A DNA stretch of 64,000 bases from Telmatocola sphagniphila (GTDB taxonomy: Bacteria > Planctomycetota > Planctomycetia > Gemmatales > Gemmataceae). The DNA lies in NCBI RefSeq assembly GCF_018398935.1, contig NZ_CP074694.1, positions 1,208,846-1,272,845 on the forward strand. Direction: 5' to 3'. Within the stretch, counting starts at the first letter, position 1. Each line of letters starts with the position of its first letter. Below are positions 26,201 through 36,922 of the stretch, piece after piece. The notes under the pieces were generated by a model that ran no database searches, had not been told where the DNA came from, and worked only from the letters and a program-made list of their open reading frames with translations. The position numbers and the translations under genes are program-made.

Positions 26201-28441
26201 ATGCTGCGACTGCTATTCCCGGTGGGACTGGTTATATCCCTTCTCGCGGCCATTCCCGCTTTGGTTTTACTGATTCTCGACGTGAGCGGACGCGAAGCGG
26301 AAACCAATGCCTGGCTCGAACAGAAAATTGGCGTCAGTCATCATTTTGCTTTATCGGATTGGGCCGCTTTTTTTCTAATTTCCCTTCCATTTTTGATTCT
26401 GATTTTCTATTTCCTGAAGCTGAAAAGAAATAGCTATCCAATTTCGAGTACGTTTCTTTGGAAAAAATCTGTTGAGGATCTGCATGTTAATCGCCTGTTG
26501 CAATGGCTGCGCCGAAATGTACTCCTGCTCCTGCAAATTTTGATCTCCCTTTTGCTGATTCTGGCCATTATGGGGCCGAGGCTTCACGGCATGGTCGGCG
26601 GAAACCGACACTACATCCTGATGGTCGATAATTCGGCCAGCATGAGTGCGACTGATATTCAACCGAATCGACTGGAGTGGGCGAAAAGAGAAGCTTTGAA
26701 GGAAATAGACGCTTCTACCGATGGTGATTTCGGGATGGTTATCGTTTTCAACGCCACCGCGGAGATTCGGCAGAGTTATACCTCAAATAGAACCCTCCTT
26801 CGAGCAGCGGTTGAGGCCATTCAGCCCACCCAGTGCCCAACGAAATTAGAGGAAGCCCTCAGTCTGGCCGAGAGTCTCGCAAATCCCGCCCGATCCACCG
26901 AAAATGAAGCAGTGCGGCCCGATAATCCAGAAAAAGGAAAGGAGCGGACGTACGCCGTTGTTGAGGGCATCGACACCCAGGTTCACCTTTTTTCAGATGG
27001 GCGTTTCGCCGATATCACCGATTTCTCGCTTGCTAATCTTCAGATGCAGTTGCATGTGCCTGAACATTCCCCGATTGGATCGGGGGATAATATCGGTATC
27101 ACGCGTTTCGATGTGCTTCGCTCCGAACTCGATCCCACCAAGATACAGGTCTTCCTGCGAGTCAACAATTTTCGCAATAAAGCGGCCAATGTATCGGTAT
27201 CTGTGGATGTGCTCGCGGAAGGCAAAAGATTGATGAATTCCCGTCAGCGTACGATCAATCTTCCCCCCCGGAAGTTAATTCCTCCTGAAGAAGAGGGGAA
27301 ACAGGCAAAAGATATTCCCGGAGAGTCCACGTTAGAGTTGGAGTTTTCGAACATCGCCGAGAATGCCGATATCGTACTTCATGCGAAGTTGAACGACTGC
27401 AAAGATAGTTTTCCACTCGATGACGAGGCTTGGCTGGTCCTCGGAGTGGTTCGGAAGGCGAAAATATTGATCGCAGGACCCGGTAATCAGGTACTGCAAT
27501 ACTTCTTTGAGAGTAACGCTGTCAAAAAGCTGGCGGATGTCACATTTATCACACCCGCCCAGCTAAAGGATTCCGCCTCTTATCTCGATCCCGCCCTCAG
27601 TGGCGTCTACGATCTGGTCATTTTTGATCGATGTGCTCCTTCGACTGAAAACGAGATGCCCCGAGCGCACACTCTGTTCATCGGCTATCCGCCGCCGCCC
27701 TGGAAAATCGATGGCAAAGGGGAGGATCGCCTGCTGGTGGAAAAAATCGAATTTCCTCAGGTGCGCGGTTGGAACGACCAGCATCCGGTGATGCGGGGCA
27801 TTACCGGTTGGCATGAAATGGAATTGGCTGAGGCGTTGAGATTCGAAAAACTCCCTCCTAAAACGCCTGTTTTGATAGAGGGGGATCGCGAACTGGCTCT
27901 ACTCTTCGCATTGTCTCGGGGATCTTACACCGATCTGGTTATGGCTTTTCCCCTGGAAACGCTCGATGGCAAGTGGAATACCCGTTGGTTTTTAAAGCCG
28001 GGATTTCCTCTGTTTTTCAGGAATCTCCTCTTGTTTATGGGTAACGTCCGGGATGCCAGCAGCGAAGAGACTATTAAGCCCGGTCAGGTGAAACTGATTC
28101 GACCAGGTGGTGGTGTTGCAGAAATTCAGGTGAAATCGCCTAAGGGAGAAATTGTTCGACTCGAGCGGGGCAATCGCAGTGATTTCAACTTCGGCAACAC
28201 AGTAGAGCAGGGGGTTTACGAAATCACCTGGAAAGACCAGATTCGTCGCTTTGCAGTGAATCTTTTCGATCTGAACGAGAGCAATATCGAACCCCGGGAT
28301 GCCATCCGAATTGGATCCGAGGACATCGCAGCTGGAGAAGCGCGCAAGCAACCCCGCGAACTTTGGCGCTGGGCGTTGCTGATAGGATTCGGCTTCGTGC
28401 TGATCGAATGGTTCATCTACAACAAGCGAATTGCTCTTTAG
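26201..28441 (+). CDS. BatA-like N-terminal double-transmembrane / von Willebrand factor A domain protein
   Basis: N-terminus LKLKRNSYPISSTFLWKKS between two TM helices is typical of the BatA / TIGR02226 N-terminus. VWA domain HYILMVDNSASMSATD with a MIDAS-like DxSxS. Long C-terminal region and a C-terminal TM. Confidence 0.75.
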   Translation: MLRLLFPVGLVISLLAAIPALVLLILDVSGREAETNAWLEQKIGVSHHFALSDWAAFFLISLPFLILIFYFLKLKRNSYPISSTFLWKKSVEDLHVNRLLQWLRRNVLLLLQILISLLLILAIMGPRLHGMVGGNRHYILMVDNSASMSATDIQPNRLEWAKREALKEIDASTDGDFGMVIVFNATAEIRQSYTSNRTLLRAAVEAIQPTQCPTKLEEALSLAESLANPARSTENEAVRPDNPEKGKERTYAVVEGIDTQVHLFSDGRFADITDFSLANLQMQLHVPEHSPIGSGDNIGITRFDVLRSELDPTKIQVFLRVNNFRNKAANVSVSVDVLAEGKRLMNSRQRTINLPPRKLIPPEEEGKQAKDIPGESTLELEFSNIAENADIVLHAKLNDCKDSFPLDDEAWLVLGVVRKAKILIAGPGNQVLQYFFESNAVKKLADVTFITPAQLKDSASYLDPALSGVYDLVIFDRCAPSTENEMPRAHTLFIGYPPPPWKIDGKGEDRLLVEKIEFPQVRGWNDQHPVMRGITGWHEMELAEALRFEKLPPKTPVLIEGDRELALLFALSRGSYTDLVMAFPLETLDGKWNTRWFLKPGFPLFFRNLLLFMGNVRDASSEETIKPGQVKLIRPGGGVAEIQVKSPKGEIVRLERGNRSDFNFGNTVEQGVYEITWKDQIRRFAVNLFDLNESNIEPRDAIRIGSEDIAAGEARKQPRELWRWALLIGFGFVLIEWFIYNKRIAL

Positions 28442-30252
28442 TCGGGAATATCGTCACGATTCGACTCGGGACGTCGTATACCGTGCTTGGCGAGTTTGCG
28501 ATAAAGGGTATCCCGATTAAGTCCTGTAATTAGTGCTGCGCGAGCCATATTCCAGTTGGTTTTCTTAAGAGCCTGTTCGATTGCTAGGATTTCCAGCTTT
28601 TCAATATTCAGCTCTGGCAGATCCAGGATTTGGCCGTATTCCTCATCTAAGTGATTCCTCACCAAATCCCCGTTAATCACCATATCAGCCGCATTGCAGT
28701 AGATTCGATCGAGAGTATTCCGCAATTCGCGAATGTTGCCGGGCCATGTGTGCTGCTGGAGTGCCTCCCAGCCCGATTCGTCGATCCGTAACTCGACGTC
28801 GCTATTTTTTTTTGCGAAATGCTCGATCAGCAGCGGGATATCGGACAACCGTTCACGCAACGGAGGAACGATAACTCGCAAAACATTCAACCGATAGAAC
28901 AGATCCGCGCGAAATCGCTTCTGATCCTTCATTTTCGCAAGATCCGCATTGGTCGCCGCGATGATTCGGACATCGACCTTTTCATCTTGGGATCCGCCCA
29001 CCGAGCGAATGGTTCCCTGTTCGAGGACTCGCAGCAATTTAGCCTGGCAGGCGTCTGACATCTCCCCCAATTCATCGAGAAACAGAATTCCATCGTCTGC
29101 TTCCCGAAAGACTCCAATGTGTTTTTTAGTGGCCCCGGTGAAAGCCCCGATCTCATGACCGAATAAATGCGATTCGAGTAATCCATCTGGAATGGCGGCA
29201 CAATTCACGGGAACGAAGCCTCGTCCCGCCCGCAAACTCAGCTTGTGGATTTCGCGAGCGACGAGTTCTTTACCGACGCCACTCTCGCCAAGTATCAAAA
29301 CCGATTTTTCATGACGGCTTACATTTTTTATCTGCCGGAGTAACTCCTGCATCGGGGGACTTTGGCCGACCATGACATAACTGGAATCGGCCGAGTCCTC
29401 AACTCTTTGCCCATAAAGAGCCTCGCTTTGCTCCTGAAATTGATTGATGCGCCCAATCAGAAACGGAAGTGCAATCTCGAAGATGGACTTGTCCCGGGAA
29501 GTGAACTCTCTTTCGTGAGAATAGACGTGGAGAGTGCCGAATTTTTTGTCGTTGTACACCAGGGGAGCACACAAAGCGTCTTTGAAATCCGCAAGACTCG
29601 CACTGTCGAGTTCAACACTTCGGCTGCGCAATTGAACGGTTCCGCCTTCCACGGTTGCCCACCGGGATAACTTCTGGCTGAGTTGAATGTCGAGACTGTG
29701 ATTTCGAGGTATTACCAGTTTCGGTTCGCTGAGTATGGGATCGCTTCTTAAATAGCCGATGACATTAGCTCGCAGCATGACTTGAAGGTATTCCATTGCC
29801 AACTCCAGGAATTTCTTCAAATCCACTTCCTTGGAAGTTTGGCTGATGAATGCGTGGAGTTGCTTAATTTCATCCTCGAATCGCATCGTACTCTGTGCAG
29901 AGGTATCCTCTGAGCGATCCGGGGAGGGACCCGCTTGCACCAGAGTGAATTTGAAACGATTGTTGATGATCTGGATTTCGCTGGAATTCTCGAGCTGACA
30001 TATCTTGTCTTCGCGATCGTAACGCTTGCCGTTGACGAGAGTGCCGTTCTGCCCTTCATTTTCCAAAAACCAGCGGATCCCTTCATTGTAAATCCGCGCA
30101 TGAGTACTCGAGACATAATCATCAGCCAGCACCATCATCGCTTTTTTTTGACTTCGACCGAGAATCAACTGCTCTCCGCGACTAATTTCAAAAACTCGAG
30201 GGGTGACATTACCTTCCACTACGACGAGTCTGGCGCGCATAAAAAGGACCAT
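28438..30252 (-). CDS. Sigma-54-dependent transcriptional activator with N-terminal FHA and GAF domains and a C-terminal Fis-type HTH
   Basis: FHA-like start VVEGNVTPRVFEISRGEQLILGRSQ...SSTHARI. AAA+ motifs GESGVGKELVAREIH, the GAFTGA loop (EIGAFTGATK), and ESHLFGHE. C-terminal HTH. Confidence 0.85.
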   Translation of the reverse strand: MVLFMRARLVVVEGNVTPRVFEISRGEQLILGRSQKKAMMVLADDYVSSTHARIYNEGIRWFLENEGQNGTLVNGKRYDREDKICQLENSSEIQIINNRFKFTLVQAGPSPDRSEDTSAQSTMRFEDEIKQLHAFISQTSKEVDLKKFLELAMEYLQVMLRANVIGYLRSDPILSEPKLVIPRNHSLDIQLSQKLSRWATVEGGTVQLRSRSVELDSASLADFKDALCAPLVYNDKKFGTLHVYSHEREFTSRDKSIFEIALPFLIGRINQFQEQSEALYGQRVEDSADSSYVMVGQSPPMQELLRQIKNVSRHEKSVLILGESGVGKELVAREIHKLSLRAGRGFVPVNCAAIPDGLLESHLFGHEIGAFTGATKKHIGVFREADDGILFLDELGEMSDACQAKLLRVLEQGTIRSVGGSQDEKVDVRIIAATNADLAKMKDQKRFRADLFYRLNVLRVIVPPLRERLSDIPLLIEHFAKKNSDVELRIDESGWEALQQHTWPGNIRELRNTLDRIYCNAADMVINGDLVRNHLDEEYGQILDLPELNIEKLEILAIEQALKKTNWNMARAALITGLNRDTLYRKLAKHGIRRPESNRDDIPD

Positions 30253-30388: not shown

Positions 30389-33300
30389 ATGCACAGAGAA
30401 ATTGAACATGCCGGCGAAATATTCGAGCGTCCCAAAACGCTGGGCATCTATCTGTTCACATCCTTATTGCTCCTGTTGCTTTTGGCCGATATCTGGGTTC
30501 CATTCTCCGCATGCTTGTCTGCCACGTTCGGTACTTCTCTGCCCTCCTGGCGATCGCAGGAAATTTACGGCTTTCGGCTGGCTCAAATCGCTGCGATTCT
30601 GGGAGGGGCTCGGGTTCTCTTTGGATCTCTGGAAAAACTGTTTGCGGGTAAGATCAGTGCCGATCTCGCCACGGCCATAGCCTGTATAGCGGCCATAGCG
30701 ATGAACGAACCGCTCATCGCCGCGGAAGTTATCGTCATCGGTCTGGTGGGCGAATGTCTGGAGATCTGGACCTTCGAAAGAGCCCGCCAAGGGGTTCAAA
30801 AACTGATCGAAGTCTTTCCACTTCGCTGTTGGAAACTGGTCGATGGGCAGGAACAAAGAGTTTTTACCTCCGAACTTGCAGTTGGGGATACCATTCTGGT
30901 CAAACCCGGCGGCAAAATTCCGGTTGATGGTACGATTCTCGAGGGGACTTCTTCGATCGATCTCAGCGCCTTGACCGGAGAAAGTCTTCCGGTGGATAAA
31001 AAGGCCGGAGACATAGTCCTCGCGGGAAGCGTCAATCAATTTGGCGCTCTGACGATCCGGGCAGACCAAGTTGCCTCGGCCACGGCCGTCGGACATATGA
31101 TTCTGCAAACGGCACAGGCGTTGAAAAACAAAGCCCAGGTGGAAAGACAAGTCGATCGACTGGCAACCTGGTTCCTACCCGCACTTCTGGCCGTAGCGTT
31201 CGCGGTCTTTGCTTTGAATGTTTTTGTCCTCACCGGGCCATGGAAGGCGATCGAGTCTCGATTGAATCTTGCCGCGGCGGCACGACAAAGCTTATATCCC
31301 ACTCTGGGTGTGCTGGTCGTGGCGTGTCCTTGCGCCTTACTTCTTGCCACACCTGCGGCTGTGATTGCGGCGTTGGGGCGTCTGGCAGGCACTGGAATTG
31401 TTATTAAAGGGGGAGCAGTAATCGAAAAACTGGCCTCGATTCGGGCATTGGCTTTTGACAAAACGGGGACACTCACTCAGGCGAAACTAAAGCTTCGCAT
31501 CATCAAACCGATCGGTTCTGTATCGGAATCCGACATTTTGAGACTCGCAGGGGCTATTGAAAAATTCAGTGAACATCCCATCGCCGCTTGTATTCTCGAG
31601 GAAGTAAAAAGCCGAAATCTCGACCTGCCCTCAGCAACTGAATTTCAAGCCTATCCCGGCGCCGGGGCCAGCGGCCTCGTAGATGGACAAAAAGTTCTGA
31701 TCGGAAATGGTAGATTTCTTCAGTCCGAAGGTGTGCCGATCCTGGACATTTCTGAGGAATGGGAGAAGGCTTCTGAAGCCAGTGCGACAATTCTCTATGT
31801 CGCGGTGGACTCCCGATTAATCGGAATTCTAGGAGTGCAGGATACTATCCGCCTGGAAGCGGCCGATGTTCTCGCAGCCTTACGAGCTGATGGTATCGAT
31901 CGCTTTGCCATTTTGACGGGGGATCGCTCCAACGTGGCAGGCGAAATCGGTCATGCATTGAACATTTCAGATGTTCACGGAGAGCTTTTCCCTCAGCAGA
32001 AGGCCGATTGGCTAAAACTCCACCCCGACTATGCCTATATCGGAGACGGAATCAATGATGCTCTGGCCTTGGCCACGGCCCCTGTAGGATTAGCCATACG
32101 GCATCCGCAATCCGATTCAGCCGCCGAGGCCGGGGATGTCATTCTCTACGGTGATCCGCTGGGACATCTGCCGCTGTTGATGCGTTTGTCCCGCGAAACG
32201 GTAAAAGTCATCCGCCAGAATATCCTGGTCTTTGCATTCCTCGTCAATCTGATTGGGGTTGTTCTTGTCGGTTTGCTGTGGCCTTTGATTTTCGGCGGCG
32301 GACCCGTCTATGAAAAATCCCCACTCGTCGGAGTTATTTATCACCAATTTGGATCTCTCGCGGTACTCCTAAATTCGCTCCGACTCTTGTTCTTTGAACG
32401 AAAATCCTCCGCGCTGGGATTCTTTAAAATCAAAATCGCGTTGAAGTCTTTCGATATTTGGGTAGACCGCTATTTCAATTTAGATCATCTGATCCACGAG
32501 ATCACTCATCATGCCAATAAACTTACCGCAGGCTTGGCGGGATTGCTGTTGGTACTCTGGGCACTTTCTGGACTAGTTCAAGTTGGACCCGATGAGATTG
32601 GAATTTGCAAGCGTTTCGGTCATATAGAGGAACTTCTAGAACCTGGCTTGCACCTTCGTTATCCCTTCCTCGTCGAGGAGACGATTAAGCTCAAACCCAA
32701 CGCCGTACGCAATGTCGAACTAGGATTTCGGGTGAATCTGAATTCAACGGGAAGTCGTATTCTTGCACCCAAATCTGAGATGGCTCTTTCCTGGACGAAC
32801 TCTCATACCGAAGATCTTTACCGAATCTCGGACGAAAGCCTGATGCTGACTGGGGACGGGAACCTGGTGGATGTGCTGGCGAGCGTTCAATATATCGTTG
32901 ACGATCCGGCTGCTTATCTGACCACCTGCGAGGACACGGAAAGGCTCGTCCGGCTGACATTTGAATCTCTACTGCGGGAGCGATTGGCGGGAGAGGCCTT
33001 TCTGGATTTGTTGACGATTCGCCGCAATCAATTGGTAACCGAGCTATTACTGGCTTTGAATGAACGATTGCAATCGATCCATCCTCAGAAATTGGGGATA
33101 GAACTGGTCGGAATGACATTACCTGATTTGCATCCTCCTACTAGCGTCGTGCCGGCCTACCACGACGTGGCTCGGGCGATTCAAGGACGCGATCAGCAAA
33201 TCAATCAGGCCTTGGCCGAGTCGATTCGTAAGCGTAGTCGAGCCGAGGAGGATGCCGGTTATCTAACTCGTATCGCCGAAGCTGCCGCCGCGGAAAAAGT

Positions 33301-33613
33301 TCGTCAGGCCGAAGGGGCTCGGGATGCTTTTCTCGCTTGGGTGAAATTCCGTAGCCAGATTACTGAGGATGAGGAACGGGCCATTCAAACTCAAATAGCA
33401 GAGCCACAACAGCGTGAGAAAGCCCGGGCCGAATTGCTGACAATGAAGCGACAGCTGACAGAATTCCGCCTGTCCTTGGAAGCAGCCGTGCAATTTTTGA
33501 AGGGTCGGGATAAAGTATTGATCGATGCGGATAAGGTGCCGGGAAAGCGAAGTTTCTTTCTGCTTGATCCGGAGGTATTGAAGGTGATAATGCCCAGCGA
33601 TCCCAAACCGTAA
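30389..33613 (+). CDS. Fusion protein: P1B-type heavy-metal P-type ATPase (no N-terminal metal-binding domain) plus C-terminal HflK/HflC-like SPFH (band 7) domain
   Basis: ATPase half: TGES, CPC in TM6 (VVACPCALLLATP), DKTGTLT, SEHPIA, GDGINDALAL, and two C-terminal TM helices ending ...NSLRLL. Then a TM helix and an SPFH domain (IGICKRFGHIEELLEPGLHLRYPFLVE..., LTGDGNLVDVLASVQYIVDDPAAYL) with a coiled-coil tail. A single 1074-aa open frame. Confidence 0.8.
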   Translation: MHREIEHAGEIFERPKTLGIYLFTSLLLLLLLADIWVPFSACLSATFGTSLPSWRSQEIYGFRLAQIAAILGGARVLFGSLEKLFAGKISADLATAIACIAAIAMNEPLIAAEVIVIGLVGECLEIWTFERARQGVQKLIEVFPLRCWKLVDGQEQRVFTSELAVGDTILVKPGGKIPVDGTILEGTSSIDLSALTGESLPVDKKAGDIVLAGSVNQFGALTIRADQVASATAVGHMILQTAQALKNKAQVERQVDRLATWFLPALLAVAFAVFALNVFVLTGPWKAIESRLNLAAAARQSLYPTLGVLVVACPCALLLATPAAVIAALGRLAGTGIVIKGGAVIEKLASIRALAFDKTGTLTQAKLKLRIIKPIGSVSESDILRLAGAIEKFSEHPIAACILEEVKSRNLDLPSATEFQAYPGAGASGLVDGQKVLIGNGRFLQSEGVPILDISEEWEKASEASATILYVAVDSRLIGILGVQDTIRLEAADVLAALRADGIDRFAILTGDRSNVAGEIGHALNISDVHGELFPQQKADWLKLHPDYAYIGDGINDALALATAPVGLAIRHPQSDSAAEAGDVILYGDPLGHLPLLMRLSRETVKVIRQNILVFAFLVNLIGVVLVGLLWPLIFGGGPVYEKSPLVGVIYHQFGSLAVLLNSLRLLFFERKSSALGFFKIKIALKSFDIWVDRYFNLDHLIHEITHHANKLTAGLAGLLLVLWALSGLVQVGPDEIGICKRFGHIEELLEPGLHLRYPFLVEETIKLKPNAVRNVELGFRVNLNSTGSRILAPKSEMALSWTNSHTEDLYRISDESLMLTGDGNLVDVLASVQYIVDDPAAYLTTCEDTERLVRLTFESLLRERLAGEAFLDLLTIRRNQLVTELLLALNERLQSIHPQKLGIELVGMTLPDLHPPTSVVPAYHDVARAIQGRDQQINQALAESIRKRSRAEEDAGYLTRIAEAAAAEKVRQAEGARDAFLAWVKFRSQITEDEERAIQTQIAEPQQREKARAELLTMKRQLTEFRLSLEAAVQFLKGRDKVLIDADKVPGKRSFFLLDPEVLKVIMPSDPKP

Positions 33614-33641: not shown

Positions 33642-34484
33642 TTACTTGTCAAGGAGTTTGCGAGAGTTCATCCATTTGATAAGTTCGTCGGGCCATTTTG
33701 AAAATGGGAGGTCTTTTACCGTGTTACCAAGCCCCAGGCCGTGTTGACCTTTCTCATAGGTTACCAATTGGACTGGTACGCCGTGCTTTTCGCAGGCTTC
33801 CTTGAAGAGCTTGCTGTTATCCACTTTGACGGCTTTGTCTTCTTCGGTGTGTACCAGGAATGTCGGAGGCGTATCCTTGGTCACCTGCTTCTCGTTAGAG
33901 TAAAATTCCACGAGCTTAGTATCCGGTTTGTTCCCAATTAAGTTGGTACGGCTACCGCCGTGCGTGACAGGGCCCATGCTGATAACGGGATAAGCCAGAA
34001 TTGCAAAATCTGGACGACTGCTGACCTGATCAATGGGATCTTTGGCTTCTTTATTTCCGGAATCGAAATGCGTGGCGGCCGTCGAGGCCAAATGCCCACC
34101 CGCAGAGAATCCCATGACGCCAATTCGCTTGGGATCTATGCCATAATCTTTTGATTTGAATCTCGCCCAGCGAATGGCTCGTTGGACGTCCAGCATCGGT
34201 GCGGGCTCGATGGGACCTTTCAAATTTTTATCAGCGATACGATATTTCAACACGAAAACAGTCACGCCGTGCTGGTTAAGAAAGTTCGCGACTTGCTTGC
34301 CTTCATGATCCATAGCCAGAAAGCCATAACCTCCACCGGGGCAAACTACTACGGCGCAACCATTCTTTTTATCTTTGGGGGCTTCGTAAGCATAAATGCC
34401 AGGCATGCCCTCTTTACCCGTGGGCATCGGGCCGGGCATCCTATCGCCCCAGATAGGGAGGAGCATCATAACCAAAAGAGCCAT
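33642..34484 (-). CDS. Alpha/beta hydrolase (esterase / lipase, acetyl-esterase-like)
   Basis: 280 aa. HGGG-type oxyanion region (VVVCPGGGYGFLA) and nucleophile elbow GFSAGGHLAS. Confidence 0.7.
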   Translation of the reverse strand: MALLVMMLLPIWGDRMPGPMPTGKEGMPGIYAYEAPKDKKNGCAVVVCPGGGYGFLAMDHEGKQVANFLNQHGVTVFVLKYRIADKNLKGPIEPAPMLDVQRAIRWARFKSKDYGIDPKRIGVMGFSAGGHLASTAATHFDSGNKEAKDPIDQVSSRPDFAILAYPVISMGPVTHGGSRTNLIGNKPDTKLVEFYSNEKQVTKDTPPTFLVHTEEDKAVKVDNSKLFKEACEKHGVPVQLVTYEKGQHGLGLGNTVKDLPFSKWPDELIKWMNSRKLLDK

Positions 34485-34619: not shown

Positions 34620-35453
34620 ATGTCCAACCACAATGGTGGATCGGAAATGAAGATCATCCATGAACCCAGCGTTTACGTCGTGGGGCGTCAGTATCTCGAC
34701 GACGGGGAACTAAATCGTTTCCTGACCGATCATGGTGTGACCTGGCAAAGCGATAGCGAAGTTGCTGCGGAAGTGTTGACCGAGTCGGCCGGCCGCATCT
34801 GCTATATGTCTTTTGCTAAACCTCGGCCGGGCGGTAACAGCACTTATCTCAAACACATCAAAGAAGTTGGACACGGTTCTGTACTGGAACATGCCGTTTG
34901 GAATCTGGTGTTCACCGGTGTCTCGCGAGCGCTCACGCACGAATTGATCCGGCACCGGGCCGGGATGGGATACTCCCAGTTGAGCCAACGTTACGTGGAC
35001 GAATCGGTAGCCGAATATGTCGAGCCCAAGATCATTGCATCTGACCCGGAACTGCATCAGATCTGGCAGGATGCAGTTCGTCAGATGCATGAAGCCTACT
35101 TGAAGTTATCGGAAGGCTTGAACATAAAATTGACCGATCCGAAGTTGGCGGCGGAAGCCGGATTGCCGCCGGATGCAGACCGGACCACCCGGCGCAAATC
35201 TGCCCGCCAAGCCGCGCGGAGCGTGCTGCCAAATGCTACGGAAACCAAGATATTCGTAACGGCAAATGCTCGGGCGATTCGCCACTTTCTGGAAATGCGG
35301 GGATCTGCGGCGGCGGACGTCGAGATTCGTCAGCTCGCCAATAAGGTGCTGGAAGTTATGCAGAAAGAAAGCCCGAATCTCTTTGGGGATTACGAGAGAA
35401 TCCCGCTACCGGATGGAACGTTCGAGATCACCACTGCTTTTAGAAAAGTGTAA
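34620..35453 (+). CDS. thyX: FAD-dependent thymidylate synthase
   Basis: RHRAGMGYSQLSQRY matches the ThyX signature RHRxxxxxQxSxRY. Length 277 aa. Confidence 0.9.
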   Translation: MSNHNGGSEMKIIHEPSVYVVGRQYLDDGELNRFLTDHGVTWQSDSEVAAEVLTESAGRICYMSFAKPRPGGNSTYLKHIKEVGHGSVLEHAVWNLVFTGVSRALTHELIRHRAGMGYSQLSQRYVDESVAEYVEPKIIASDPELHQIWQDAVRQMHEAYLKLSEGLNIKLTDPKLAAEAGLPPDADRTTRRKSARQAARSVLPNATETKIFVTANARAIRHFLEMRGSAAADVEIRQLANKVLEVMQKESPNLFGDYERIPLPDGTFEITTAFRKV

Positions 35454-35788: not shown

Positions 35789-36922
35789 TTGGAAAAGGCA
35801 ATGAGCCAAACGATCGACCAGACGACTACTCAGGGTGTTCTCGAACTTCACCAAAAAGGCTACGGATTTCTTCGCAATCCCCAGCGATTTTATGCCCCTC
35901 AGCCGACCGACGCTTACGTTTCACAAGAATTAATTCGCAAACACAAACTCCGGGAAGGTTCGCTTCTCATGGGTCCCGTGGGACAACCGCAGAAAGGGAC
36001 TGGGTCCGGGCCGAGACTGACGGGAATTGAACGGATAGAAAACTTTGAACTCGAACTGTTCCGCCAACCCGATTGGGACGAACTGACGGCAATTGACCCT
36101 CGCGAAAAAATCAAACTCGAGACGGGGGCTCAACCTCTGACGACCCGAGTCATGGATCTCTTTACGCCATTGGGTAAAGGTCAGCGTGGGTTGATCGTCG
36201 CCCCGCCCCGAACCGGTAAAACAGTGCTTCTGCAGCACATCGCGCAAGCTGTTTCGGTCAACCATCCGGAAATGCATCTGATGGTGCTTCTCGTTGATGA
36301 GCGGCCGGAAGAAGTGACCGAGATGAGACGAACTATCCGTGGAGAAGTGGTCGCCAGCTCCTCCGATAAAGATTCAGCCAATCATATCCGAACGGCCGAA
36401 TTGGTGATGGAACGGGCCAAGCGATTGACTGAACAGGGTAAAGATGTTTTCGTGCTACTGGATAGCCTGACACGATTAGCCCGCGCCTATAACAAGGCGA
36501 CGACAGGCGGTCGGACGATGTCGGGCGGGCTGGACAGCCGGGCCATGGAACTCCCCAAGAGACTGTTCGGCGCGGCCCGGGCTTTGGAAGAAGGCGGCAG
36601 TCTGACGGTCGTCGGCACCGCGTTGGTTGAAACCGGCTCCCGGATGGATGATGTGATTTTTGAGGAATTCAAAGGTACTGGTAACATGGAACTTGTTCTG
36701 GATCGCAAGCTCAGCGATCGCAGAATTTACCCGGCTATTAATCTGGCGGAATCGGGGACTCGTAAAGAAGAGCGATTGCTAACAGAAGAAGATTATCGCC
36801 GTGTCTCGCTGATTCGACGCCACCTGGTGGATCTACCTCCAGTTCAGGCCATGGAAAATCTGCTGAAACACATGAGTAAAACTGAAAATAATCAGGCCTT
36901 TCTGGATAAGATGAAAGTCTAA
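35789..36922 (+). CDS. rho: Transcription termination factor Rho (short form lacking the N-terminal helical subdomain). The start may be the ATG at 35801.
   Basis: GYGFLRN (equivalent to E. coli GFGFLR), Walker [19 protein letters not shown] and R loops, and a near-identical C-terminal half ([24 protein letters not shown]). 377 aa versus 419 aa in E. coli. Confidence 0.9.

Follow-up and report, generated by a model that had tools for sequence, protein, structure and literature searches.

A P1B-type metal pump fused in frame to an HflK-type SPFH subunit in Telmatocola sphagniphila and other bacterial lineages

Results

One reading frame encodes a metal pump and an HflK-type subunit

We analyzed a 64,000-nucleotide stretch of the Telmatocola sphagniphila chromosome (contig NZ_CP074694.1, positions 1,208,846 to 1,272,845; hereafter the window) and focused on one forward-strand gene that joins a P1B-type metal-transporting ATPase in frame to an SPFH protein. 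The structural conclusion drawn from the sequence is well supported: a metal pump is built into an HflK-type cage subunit, one predicted to pair with HflC. We consider it rather likely that the protein is an HflK-type subunit of an HflK/HflC-type SPFH cage, in which the tail of HflK is replaced by a complete, predicted competent CPC-type P1B pump that exports metal at the cage. We also infer a functional coupling, with metal transport tied to the SPFH/FtsH membrane compartment.

The gene (30389-33613, forward strand) is a single uninterrupted open reading frame (ORF) of 1074 codons. A Pfam search of its translation recovered the three domains that a preliminary description, made from the sequence alone, had expected: E1-E2_ATPase (residues 144-333, E = 1.8e-49), the HAD-type Hydrolase domain (residues 351-564, E = 2.9e-21), and Band_7 (PF01145, residues 731-944, E = 1.9e-16, 61 bits versus a cut-off of 23.6). 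All three were far over their gathering scores. An identical protein is already on record from the 6.59-Mb chromosome of T. sphagniphila (Gemmataceae, Planctomycetota), and the 119 next-best clusters all carry the same three domains, with 45–63% identity, 95–100% coverage, and lengths of 1053–1146 residues. The fusion is thus conserved in 120 of the 120 best matches. Because the identical record and the 119 clusters all show this architecture, a missed stop codon or frameshift is excluded.

An alignment of 120 homologues kept the MHRE start, the catalytic motifs, the linker, the ninth transmembrane (TM) helix, and the SPFH core conserved in frame. Composition is even over the junction of the two halves (GC 0.53 versus 0.50; GC at third codon positions 0.53 versus 0.52). 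Some homologues do look split (P0253, P0255, P0471, L064, L067, and L072), but each of these stems from an indel-rich long-read assembly where the neighboring genes are fragmented as well. No point was found in support of an artefact in which two separate genes would have been joined through loss of a stop codon, through a frameshift, or through chimeric assembly; we rejected it as having a negligible probability, given that over 220 independent clusters, drawn from many assemblies and phyla, show the same continuous ORF.

The pump half is a complete P1B ATPase

The preliminary description had proposed a complete CPC-type P1B core without an N-terminal CxxC metal-binding domain, and both statements held. 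The NCBIfam model TIGR01525 (heavy-metal P1B) matched residues 92-666 from end to end (profile positions 2-560 of 560; 496.9 bits versus a cut-off of 346.25), and the motifs were in their places (Table 1), including SEHP, the HP motif of the N domain, at residues 394-397. Pfam found no HMA/CxxC metal-binding domain in the fusion. The pump also passed TIGR01512 (the "Cd family"; 374 bits versus a cut-off of 313.5) and did not pass the copper model TIGR01511 (327 bits versus a cut-off of 397).

The pump aligned with Legionella pneumophila CopA (3rfu) over residues 111-666, from M2 to M6 (E = 2.5e-88), and resembled the solved Cu-, Co/Cd-, and Zn-type structures to about the same degree (3rfu, sCoaT 7qbz, and S. 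sonnei ZntA 4umv, respectively). A crude hydropathy scan detected MA, the M1/M2 hairpin, M3, M4, M5, and a weak M6, and the amphipathic MB stayed below threshold. Because MB and M6 are weakly hydrophobic, the count of eight pump helices plus one rests partly on the alignment to solved P1B pumps.

The fused pump fits no classical P1B subgroup cleanly because it combines CPC in M4 with H(Q/E)xxS in M6; the latter motif presumably resembles the HEGxT of P1B-4 pumps. Guessing from motifs (CPC, H(Q/E)xxS, and N), we consider thiophilic divalent metals such as those of the Zn/Co/Cd type to be the most likely substrates.

The extreme N terminus is conserved as well. Among 120 homologues, the starting residues MHR are at least 98% conserved and the following E at least 90% (30389-30400, residues 1-4), and many distant fused members likewise begin with MH. 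The conserved start places a His at position 2 of a pump in which no metal-binding domain was found.

The fusion belongs to an old, multi-phylum lineage

The clusters with the fused architecture are spread over Planctomycetota, Verrucomicrobiota, Kiritimatiellota, Acidobacteriota, Sumerlaeota, and Abditibacteriales. P0336, a distant member from Candidatus Sumerlaeota, supplied the pump half used as the query in a second search, which added 119 further clusters, 106 of them fused proteins of at least 950 residues; the named sources in this search were Verrucomicrobiae, Kiritimatiellaeota, Bryobacteraceae, Thermoguttaceae, and Planctomycetaceae. In a diverse set of 30 fused representatives, chosen at the 50% identity level, the lowest identities were ∼37% for the pump half and ∼29% for the SPFH half. 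ACPC is found in M4 of 29 of these proteins and CSC in one, and the M5 Asn and the M6 pattern P...H(Q/E)xxS...N..RLL are kept in all 30, usually with HQ and rarely with HE.

The nearest genuinely unfused pumps are 610–646 residues long, stop 0–29 residues past M6, and have H(N/H)xGS in M6. Two of them (P0522 and P0517) have TetR- or CsoR/RcnR-family genes beside them and no SPFH genes nearby. Three seemingly unfused proteins with the HQ signature carry C-terminal stubs of 83–174 residues and are broken fusions. We looked for natural split versions and found none that was genuine in these lineages: the stand-alone HflK proteins and 700-residue pumps near the family came from indel-rich long-read assemblies. 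Frameshifts in such assemblies thus account for the spurious "stand-alone" HflK proteins and 700-residue pumps among the database clusters. In the long-read metagenome loci L064, L067, L072, L086, L087, and L088, the fusion gene, hflC, and hflK2 are all frameshifted into several ORFs (HflK2 is our name for a stand-alone, pump-less HflK-like protein encoded 3′ of hflC). A plasmid collection returned only generic P1B pumps for the pump half, at no more than 39% identity.

Database names for the fusion are inconsistent, "cation-translocating P-type ATPase family protein" in some records and "FtsH protease activity modulator HflK" in others. Several Gemmataceae-type operons (L025, on JAIXLE010000120.1, and L008, L009, L020, L042, and L076) are labeled "Bacteroidales bacterium" or "uncultured Alcaligenaceae bacterium"; these contigs are probably mis-binned or mislabeled metagenome-assembled genomes (MAGs). 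As judged from these comparisons, the fusion belongs to an old lineage that spans several phyla and has one dedicated pump lineage.

The ninth TM helix is predicted to place the SPFH module in the periplasm

P1B pumps have both their N and C termini in the cytoplasm, and the alignment to solved structures agrees with this. The preliminary description had noted a further TM helix after the pump, and we found a strong hydropathy segment at residues 711-734. It aligns with the E. coli HflK TM helix, from residue 84 onward, and is the counterpart of HflK's own anchor. Since a P1B pump ends in the cytoplasm and one additional TM helix follows, the SPFH module is predicted to be periplasmic, as it is in HflK. 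Crude TM counts are odd for every type of fusion that we encountered: 8+1 for the pump, 6+1 for the cation diffusion facilitator (CDF) fusions described below, and 8+1 for an ArsP fusion. The pump would in effect take the place of HflK's cytoplasmic N-terminal tail.

The 40-residue linker that precedes this helix is rich in His (DHLIHEITHH). H703 is present in 120/120 and H707 in 115/120 Gemmataceae-type members, and about half of the diverse representatives keep them. The pair could be a candidate lineage-specific site for cytoplasmic metal binding or regulation.

The SPFH half is of the HflK type

In a PDB sequence search with the SPFH half, E. coli HflK chains were the only proteins matched (E ∼1e-17), and the alignment started at the HflK TM helix, covered the SPFH domain, and reached the first long helix. 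In an AlphaFold2 (AF2) model of residues 670-1074 (mean pLDDT 84.5), two linker helices lead into the TM helix and an alpha/beta SPFH core, after which come one helix of 69 residues and another long one. When this model was compared with known folds by Foldseek, the top five matches were HflK chains of FtsH-HflK/C cryo-EM structures (E from 1.3e-15 to 1.2e-11), with erlin, HflC, stomatin, prohibitin, QmcA, and flotillin below them. By direct comparison, the C-terminal motif KVLIDADKVPGKRSFFLLDPE resembles KVLVNDKGGNLMVLPLDQ of E. coli HflK, a segment that we take to be the cage cap in HflK/C structures. Every annotated match to the SPFH half in the plasmid collection was hflK, and the closest (Chondrinema) belongs to a classical pair in which hflK and hflC overlap.

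When E. coli HflK and HflC served as references, all 100 bootstraps set HflC apart from every HflK-like module. The mean identity of the pump-fused module was 31.9% to CDF-fused modules, 28.9% to classical HflK, 24.8% to HflK2, and 17.8% to HflC. On sequence, fold, and an FtsH-contact arginine, we assign the SPFH half specifically to the HflK type, as neither HflC nor a generic SPFH protein. The HflK/HflC-like SPFH domain of the preliminary description is thus borne out by the Band_7 match and the Foldseek HflK chains and narrowed to one type; its coiled-coil tail corresponds to the two long helices of the model. The domain reading made there was right in every detail that could be tested, from the motifs to the extra TM helix.

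Arg855 occupies the position of an FtsH-contact residue

FtsH touches the cage via HflK alone, and replacing HflK Arg141, Glu142, and Arg185 with Ala reduces FtsH pull-down, as reported in a 2026 study (PMC13220708). Arg855 of the fusion maps to the column of Arg185. This column holds Arg in 5/5 classical HflK proteins, 28/33 pump-fused modules (three more have Lys), and 17/20 CDF-fused modules, and never in HflK2 or HflC; Arg855 itself is invariant in a 44-sequence alignment of the family. Arg141 is kept without being discriminating, and Glu142 is not kept in the fused module. Because the Arg185 column is Arg in fused modules and never in HflK2, the fused module, and not HflK2, looks like the candidate FtsH-competent subunit.

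Sister fusions to other transporters share a periplasmic insertion

An exhaustive search with the HflK half among 1.84 billion representatives gave 96 matches below 1e-30, and we sorted the best 150 with local profiles and Pfam. These comprised full-length fused pumps, fragments of fused pumps, and fusions to two other kinds of transporters: 19 representatives of ∼550–620 residues joined a Cation_efflux (CDF) domain to Band_7, and one protein joined an ArsP_1 permease to Band_7. The CDF partners carry HxxxD in TM2 (17/17) and in TM5 (16/17), pairs that we take to be a Zn-type site. The cytoplasmic C-terminal domain seems to be absent from the CDF fusions, since Pfam showed only Cation_efflux and Band_7 in the five that were scanned. 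In a Desulfobacter MAG (L082), the genes for the CDF–HflK fusion, HflC, and HflK2 form an operon. By these profiles, the same HflK clade is fused to P1B pumps, to CDFs, and to an ArsP-type permease.

An insertion of ∼30 residues begins right after the Arg141 position in pump- and CDF-fused modules only. The Trp and His of its W-x3-H motif are present in 34/34 pump-fused modules, 19/20 CDF-fused modules, and 30/30 of the diverse set of full-length proteins. At the His column, 24/24 HflK2, 14/14 HflC, and 5/5 classical HflK proteins and the ArsP fusion have a gap, and the Trp column is a gap in 24/24 HflK2 and 4/5 classical HflK proteins. AF2 modeled the loop around W802 and H806 with low confidence. 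An invariant periplasmic His that is confined to fusions with metal-cation transporters suggests more than passive tethering, and we regard the W-x3-H loop as a candidate coupling element.

HflC and HflK2 are encoded next to the fusion in most relatives

In two of the first three distant loci that we inspected (L001 and L003), the gene after the fusion scored over the NCBIfam HflC cut-off (154.5 and 151.8 bits versus 134.4); it overlaps the fusion gene by 4 nucleotides in one case and follows after a 26-nucleotide gap in the other. An HflC-alignment scan of species genomes then gave 80 loci, T. sphagniphila not among them, of which 63 were informative Gemmatales-type loci. The fusion lies directly 5′ of hflC in 47/63, with gaps from −6 to ∼180 nucleotides (7 of these 47 fusion copies are truncated by a contig end or frameshifted), and hflC occurs without the fusion in the other 16/63. 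HflK2 follows hflC in 49/62 Gemmatales-type loci. The complete operon, with the fused pump–HflK, HflC, and HflK2 in this order and with overlapping stop and start codons, was also found in one Bryobacteraceae and one Kiritimatiellaeota genome. The Telmatocola HflC orthologue (P0177) is encoded elsewhere on the same chromosome and is 66% identical to that of L001. We saw no ftsH among the called genes or the recurrent neighbors of the operon loci examined.

A small gene follows HflK2 in the Acidobacteriota and Kiritimatiellaeota operons (L091:10885-11337, 150 residues; L092:8482-8970, 162 residues). The two products are 39% identical, with an N-terminal hydrophobic segment and weak SnoaL_3/DUF6459 matches. 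We considered this gene as a fourth conserved member of the operon and rejected it, as it is absent from the Gemmataceae loci. In one Fimbriiglobus MAG, a distantly related second P-type ATPase (L012:12844-15282, reverse strand; an 813-residue ORF) is convergent with the operon just downstream of HflK2. In a single case, a gene for a FUR-family regulator (PF01475, a family that includes Zur) lies ∼3 kb downstream of the fused operon (L086:13175-13663, reverse strand).

Features of the gene and its surroundings

The coordinates of the features are collected in Table 1.

Table 1. Features of the pump–HflK fusion gene, in window coordinates.
Feature	Residues	Position	Strand	Basis or remark
Whole gene, P1B-type metal pump fused to HflK-type SPFH subunit	1-1074	30389..33613	+	1074 residues and stop codon; three Pfam domains
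N-terminal region: MHRE start, helix MA (~19-37), amphipathic MB with Gly-Gly pair	1-90	30389..30658	+	Hydropathy
P1B ATPase core (M1-M6 and A, P, N domains)	92-666	30662..32386	+	TIGR01525; 3rfu alignment
TGES, actuator domain	196-199	30974..30985	+	Near-invariant in family
CPC metal-site motif, helix M4	313-315	31325..31333	+	
DKTGT phosphorylation motif	357-361	31457..31471	+	Kept in all fused representatives
GDGIND hinge motif	552-557	32042..32059	+	
M6 signature HQFGS...N..RLL	652-667	32342..32389	+	H(Q/E)xxS marks the fused pump lineage
Cytoplasmic linker: two short helices and H703-x3-H707 pair	669-710	32393..32518	+	AF2 helices 6-26, 29-38
Ninth TM helix	711-734	32519..32590	+	Hydropathy 2.14; AF2 helix; aligns with E. 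coli HflK TM
SPFH/Band_7 domain	731-944	32579..33220	+	Pfam PF01145; Foldseek
LSWTNSH, with W802 and H806	800-806	32786..32806	+	In insertion loop, residues ~783-812
Arg855, column of E. coli HflK Arg185 (FtsH-contact residue)	855	32951..32953	+	Alignment mapping
Two long helices (counterparts of HflK/C wall helices CC1, CC2)	921-989, 1006-1039	33149..33505	+	AF2 252-320, 337-370; pLDDT >90
C-terminal motif KVLIDADKVPGKRSFFLLDPE	1042-1062	33512..33574	+	Kept in family consensus

The window scan showed no convincing promoter or terminator for the fusion gene, and neither the window region nor six operon loci gave an Rfam match that would indicate a metal riboswitch. PADLOC did not match the fusion, HflC, or HflK2, and we rejected a defense-system reading. 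Divergent from the fusion gene and upstream of it lies a gene for a 604-residue FHA-GAF-sigma54-activator-HTH protein (28438-30252, reverse strand). Its full-length homologue (33% identity, 576 residues, E = 7e-68) is encoded two genes upstream of the Bryobacteraceae fused operon (L091:2137-4044), and an FHA-GAF histidine kinase gene is found near the operon in 11 Gemmatales loci, mostly downstream (e.g., L022:13442-15088). We considered sigma-54 control by the divergent activator and rejected it, as the regions upstream of 36 fusion genes showed no −24/−12 promoter; many of these regions carry the sigma-70-like TTGAC-N17-TAGCCT.

On the other side, an alpha/beta-hydrolase gene (33642-34484, reverse strand; BD-FAE, Abhydrolase_3, and DLH matches) is convergent with the fusion gene across a 28-nucleotide gap. 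A dienelactone-hydrolase gene lies directly 5′ of the fusion gene in L091, and an Abhydrolase_3 gene lies nearby in L002. These hydrolase neighbors may be a coincidence, because BLAST found no similarity between the hydrolases of the window and of L091. The other neighbors in the window encode a BatA/VWA protein (26201-28441, forward strand), the thymidylate synthase ThyX (34620-35453, forward strand), and a Rho-like protein (35789-36922, forward strand); none of these genes recurs beside the fusion elsewhere.

Discussion

The fusion compared with known systems

E. coli HflK (7vhp, 7vhq, 7wi3, 9cz2, and 9paw) is the best match of the fused module in both sequence and fold. The two share a single TM anchor with its N terminus inside, a periplasmic SPFH domain, two wall helices, and a C-terminal KVL..D....L.LD motif. 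However, E. coli HflK has a cytoplasmic tail of its own of ∼80 residues where the fusion has a ∼670-residue pump and a linker, and the fusion adds the periplasmic Trp/His insertion of ∼30 residues; the operon of its relatives also adds a third SPFH paralogue, HflK2. The pump half shares the predicted helices MA, MB, and M1-M6, the A, P, and N domains, and the motifs TGES, CPC, DKTGT, SEHP, and GDGxND with the solved P1B pumps (3rfu, 7qbz, and 4umv). It differs from them in having no N-terminal metal-binding domain and in carrying a C-terminal TM helix with a 400-residue SPFH module.

The sister fusions to CDFs and to the ArsP-type permease (e.g., P0294 from 'Candidatus Alcyoniella australis', and L082) belong to the same HflK clade and have the same odd-TM topology. 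The CDF fusions also have the W-x3-H insertion, and the L082 operon has the same layout, with HflC and HflK2 downstream. Yet their N-terminal partner is a secondary carrier rather than an ATP-driven pump. In the complex of stomatin with aquaporin-1 (PDB 9zd2), which was also among the Foldseek matches, an SPFH ring is likewise bound to a membrane transport protein, but the association is non-covalent, the SPFH subfamily is another one, and there is no protease partner. P1B-5 ATPases that end in a hemerythrin-like domain are a precedent for a P1B pump with an added C-terminal domain. Their extra domain is soluble and lies in the cytoplasm, whereas the module added here crosses the membrane and is predicted to be an oligomerizing scaffold.

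The hmtA locus of P. aeruginosa (PA2434/5-PA2439) contains the P1B ATPase gene for HmtA and three HflC/HflK-family genes. Transcripts of the locus rise 5.6- to 14.4-fold on Zn depletion (PMC4542158); the proteins rise as well (PMC11761036). Zur binds the promoter of this locus. In PMC8456098, Cu and Zn import is given as the role of HmtA. The papers on the locus leave its SPFH genes unexplained. Its content is of the same kind as that of the fused operon, one P1B ATPase and three HflK/HflC-family proteins. However, the genes are separate, the SPFH genes are annotated as two HflC-like and one HflK-like, and the pump is a reported importer induced by Zn starvation. Of the published systems, the hmtA-hflK/C cluster comes closest, and it may be an unfused form of the same system.

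A proposed anchoring of the pump at an SPFH cage

In the arrangement that we favor, the HflK half would assemble with HflC into a ring or cage, as homology and the conserved operon suggest. HflC would be supplied from elsewhere in the Telmatocola genome and from the next gene in most relatives; the pump-less HflK2 probably joins the cage as well. The cage probably binds FtsH via the retained HflK contact arginine. With cage assembly and FtsH binding, each fused subunit would anchor one pump at the rim of an SPFH-delimited patch. With lower certainty, the pump would move a thiophilic divalent metal (Zn/Co/Cd type) out of the cytoplasm at the cage. Also with lower certainty, the cage would set where the pump works, what receives the metal, how active the pump is, or what lifetime it has. 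The clustering or quality control of the pump that the preliminary description had proposed as the function is plausible, and nothing in the data contradicts it.

Several observations weigh against this arrangement. A 24-mer may not have room for 12 bulky pumps around it, and the main HflK-type subunit could be HflK2. The window holds no second SPFH gene, and hflC is not adjacent to the Telmatocola fusion. We guessed the metal specificity from motifs, and HmtA of P. aeruginosa is a reported importer. The module does not reach the hflK cut-off of TIGR01933 (159.4): residues 732-982 score 118.9 bits, and the C-terminal half alone scores 123.5. Because of this score, the HflK type is assigned by the other criteria given above and not by the NCBI equivalog rule. 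A neighbor-joining tree separated fused plus classical HflK from HflK2, but this split received 2% bootstrap support, and we dropped it; as the tree gives no firm branching order among the HflK-like modules, the case for orthology between the fused module and classical HflK comes from gene order, mean identities, and Arg185.

We weighed several other explanations. The fusion might serve regulated turnover or quality control, holding the pump beside FtsH for quick removal when metal levels change, with the cage gating access. FtsH binds the cage through HflK only and the contact Arg185 is retained in the fused module; moreover, the P-type ATPase MgtA is cited among the known substrates of FtsH, and current models let HflK/C concentrate substrates around FtsH. 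However, a permanent covalent tether to a protease cage would be an odd way of controlling a substrate, and turnover leaves unexplained both the periplasmic W-x3-H that is shared with the CDF fusions and the restriction of the fusions to metal(loid) transporters. No ftsH was seen near the operon loci examined either, and we consider this explanation unlikely.

Self-scaffolding without FtsH, in which a ring of HflK, HflC, and HflK2 would cluster the pumps and hold them in place in a lipid microdomain and tune their activity, in the manner of stomatin-type SPFH proteins with channels and transporters, accords with an operon that carries its own three SPFH paralogues and with the union of three unrelated transporter families with the same module. 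The human stomatin/aquaporin-1 structure also shows that channel-bound SPFH cages exist. Nevertheless, the module is HflK-like and not stomatin-like, and it keeps the FtsH-contact Arg that HflK2 has lost, so we regard self-scaffolding, too, as a minority possibility.

More speculatively, the cage might be a periplasmic metal-handling compartment, with P1B or CDF pumps built into its wall discharging a Zn-type metal into or beside the enclosed space. The W-x3-H loop would then be a first acceptor or a gate, and scarce or toxic metal would be passed on to clients within the cage or prevented from diffusing off. We give this proposal a rather small chance. If it were true, the Zur-induced hmtA-hflK/C cluster would be the unfused version, and the induction of an "exporter-type" pump by zinc starvation would be explained.

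The P. aeruginosa locus also raises the possibility that the fusion is a zinc-starvation importer, the fused counterpart of HmtA and its HflK/C neighbors, moving Zn or Cu inward under Zur control. The gene content of that locus, its induction on Zn depletion, its Zur-bound promoter, and the description of HmtA as an importer all favor such a role. CDFs are cytoplasmic exporters, and the sister fusions are to CDFs and an ArsP-type permease. CsoR/RcnR- and TetR-family regulators are typical of efflux genes, and such genes lie beside two of the nearest unfused pumps. Upstream of the fusion genes, we saw no Zur-like operator or riboswitch and only sigma-70-like promoters; in one paper, the hmtA mRNA itself did not respond to Zn. 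Taken together, these points make an importer quite improbable.

A transporter welded to a cage subunit

We found no description of a fusion of a P-type ATPase or a CDF to an SPFH protein in the literature searched, which lacked most subscription-journal papers. The preliminary description had called the architecture unfamiliar. This stands for that literature, but hundreds of copies are already in public databases under inconsistent names. The public names show either a P-type ATPase or "HflK," each hiding the other half. As far as we can tell, the component families are known, and the combination, the operon, the breadth, and the shared insertion are new.

How SPFH cages (HflK/C, prohibitin, stomatin, flotillin, and erlin) serve their clients is a long-standing question, and most clients are transient and difficult to capture. 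Here, a client is welded to a cage subunit: a complete metal pump in the lineage described here, and a CDF or an ArsP-type permease in its sister lineages. The arrangement has persisted over several phyla, along with a dedicated HflC and a second HflK paralogue. Because the complex has a built-in, assayable activity (metal-dependent ATPase and transport), and because the conserved W802/H806 and R855 are available to mutate, the question becomes directly testable. The fusion connects metal homeostasis to the FtsH/HflKC system and could account for the so far unexplained co-regulation of hmtA and HflK/C-family genes in the zinc regulon of Pseudomonas.

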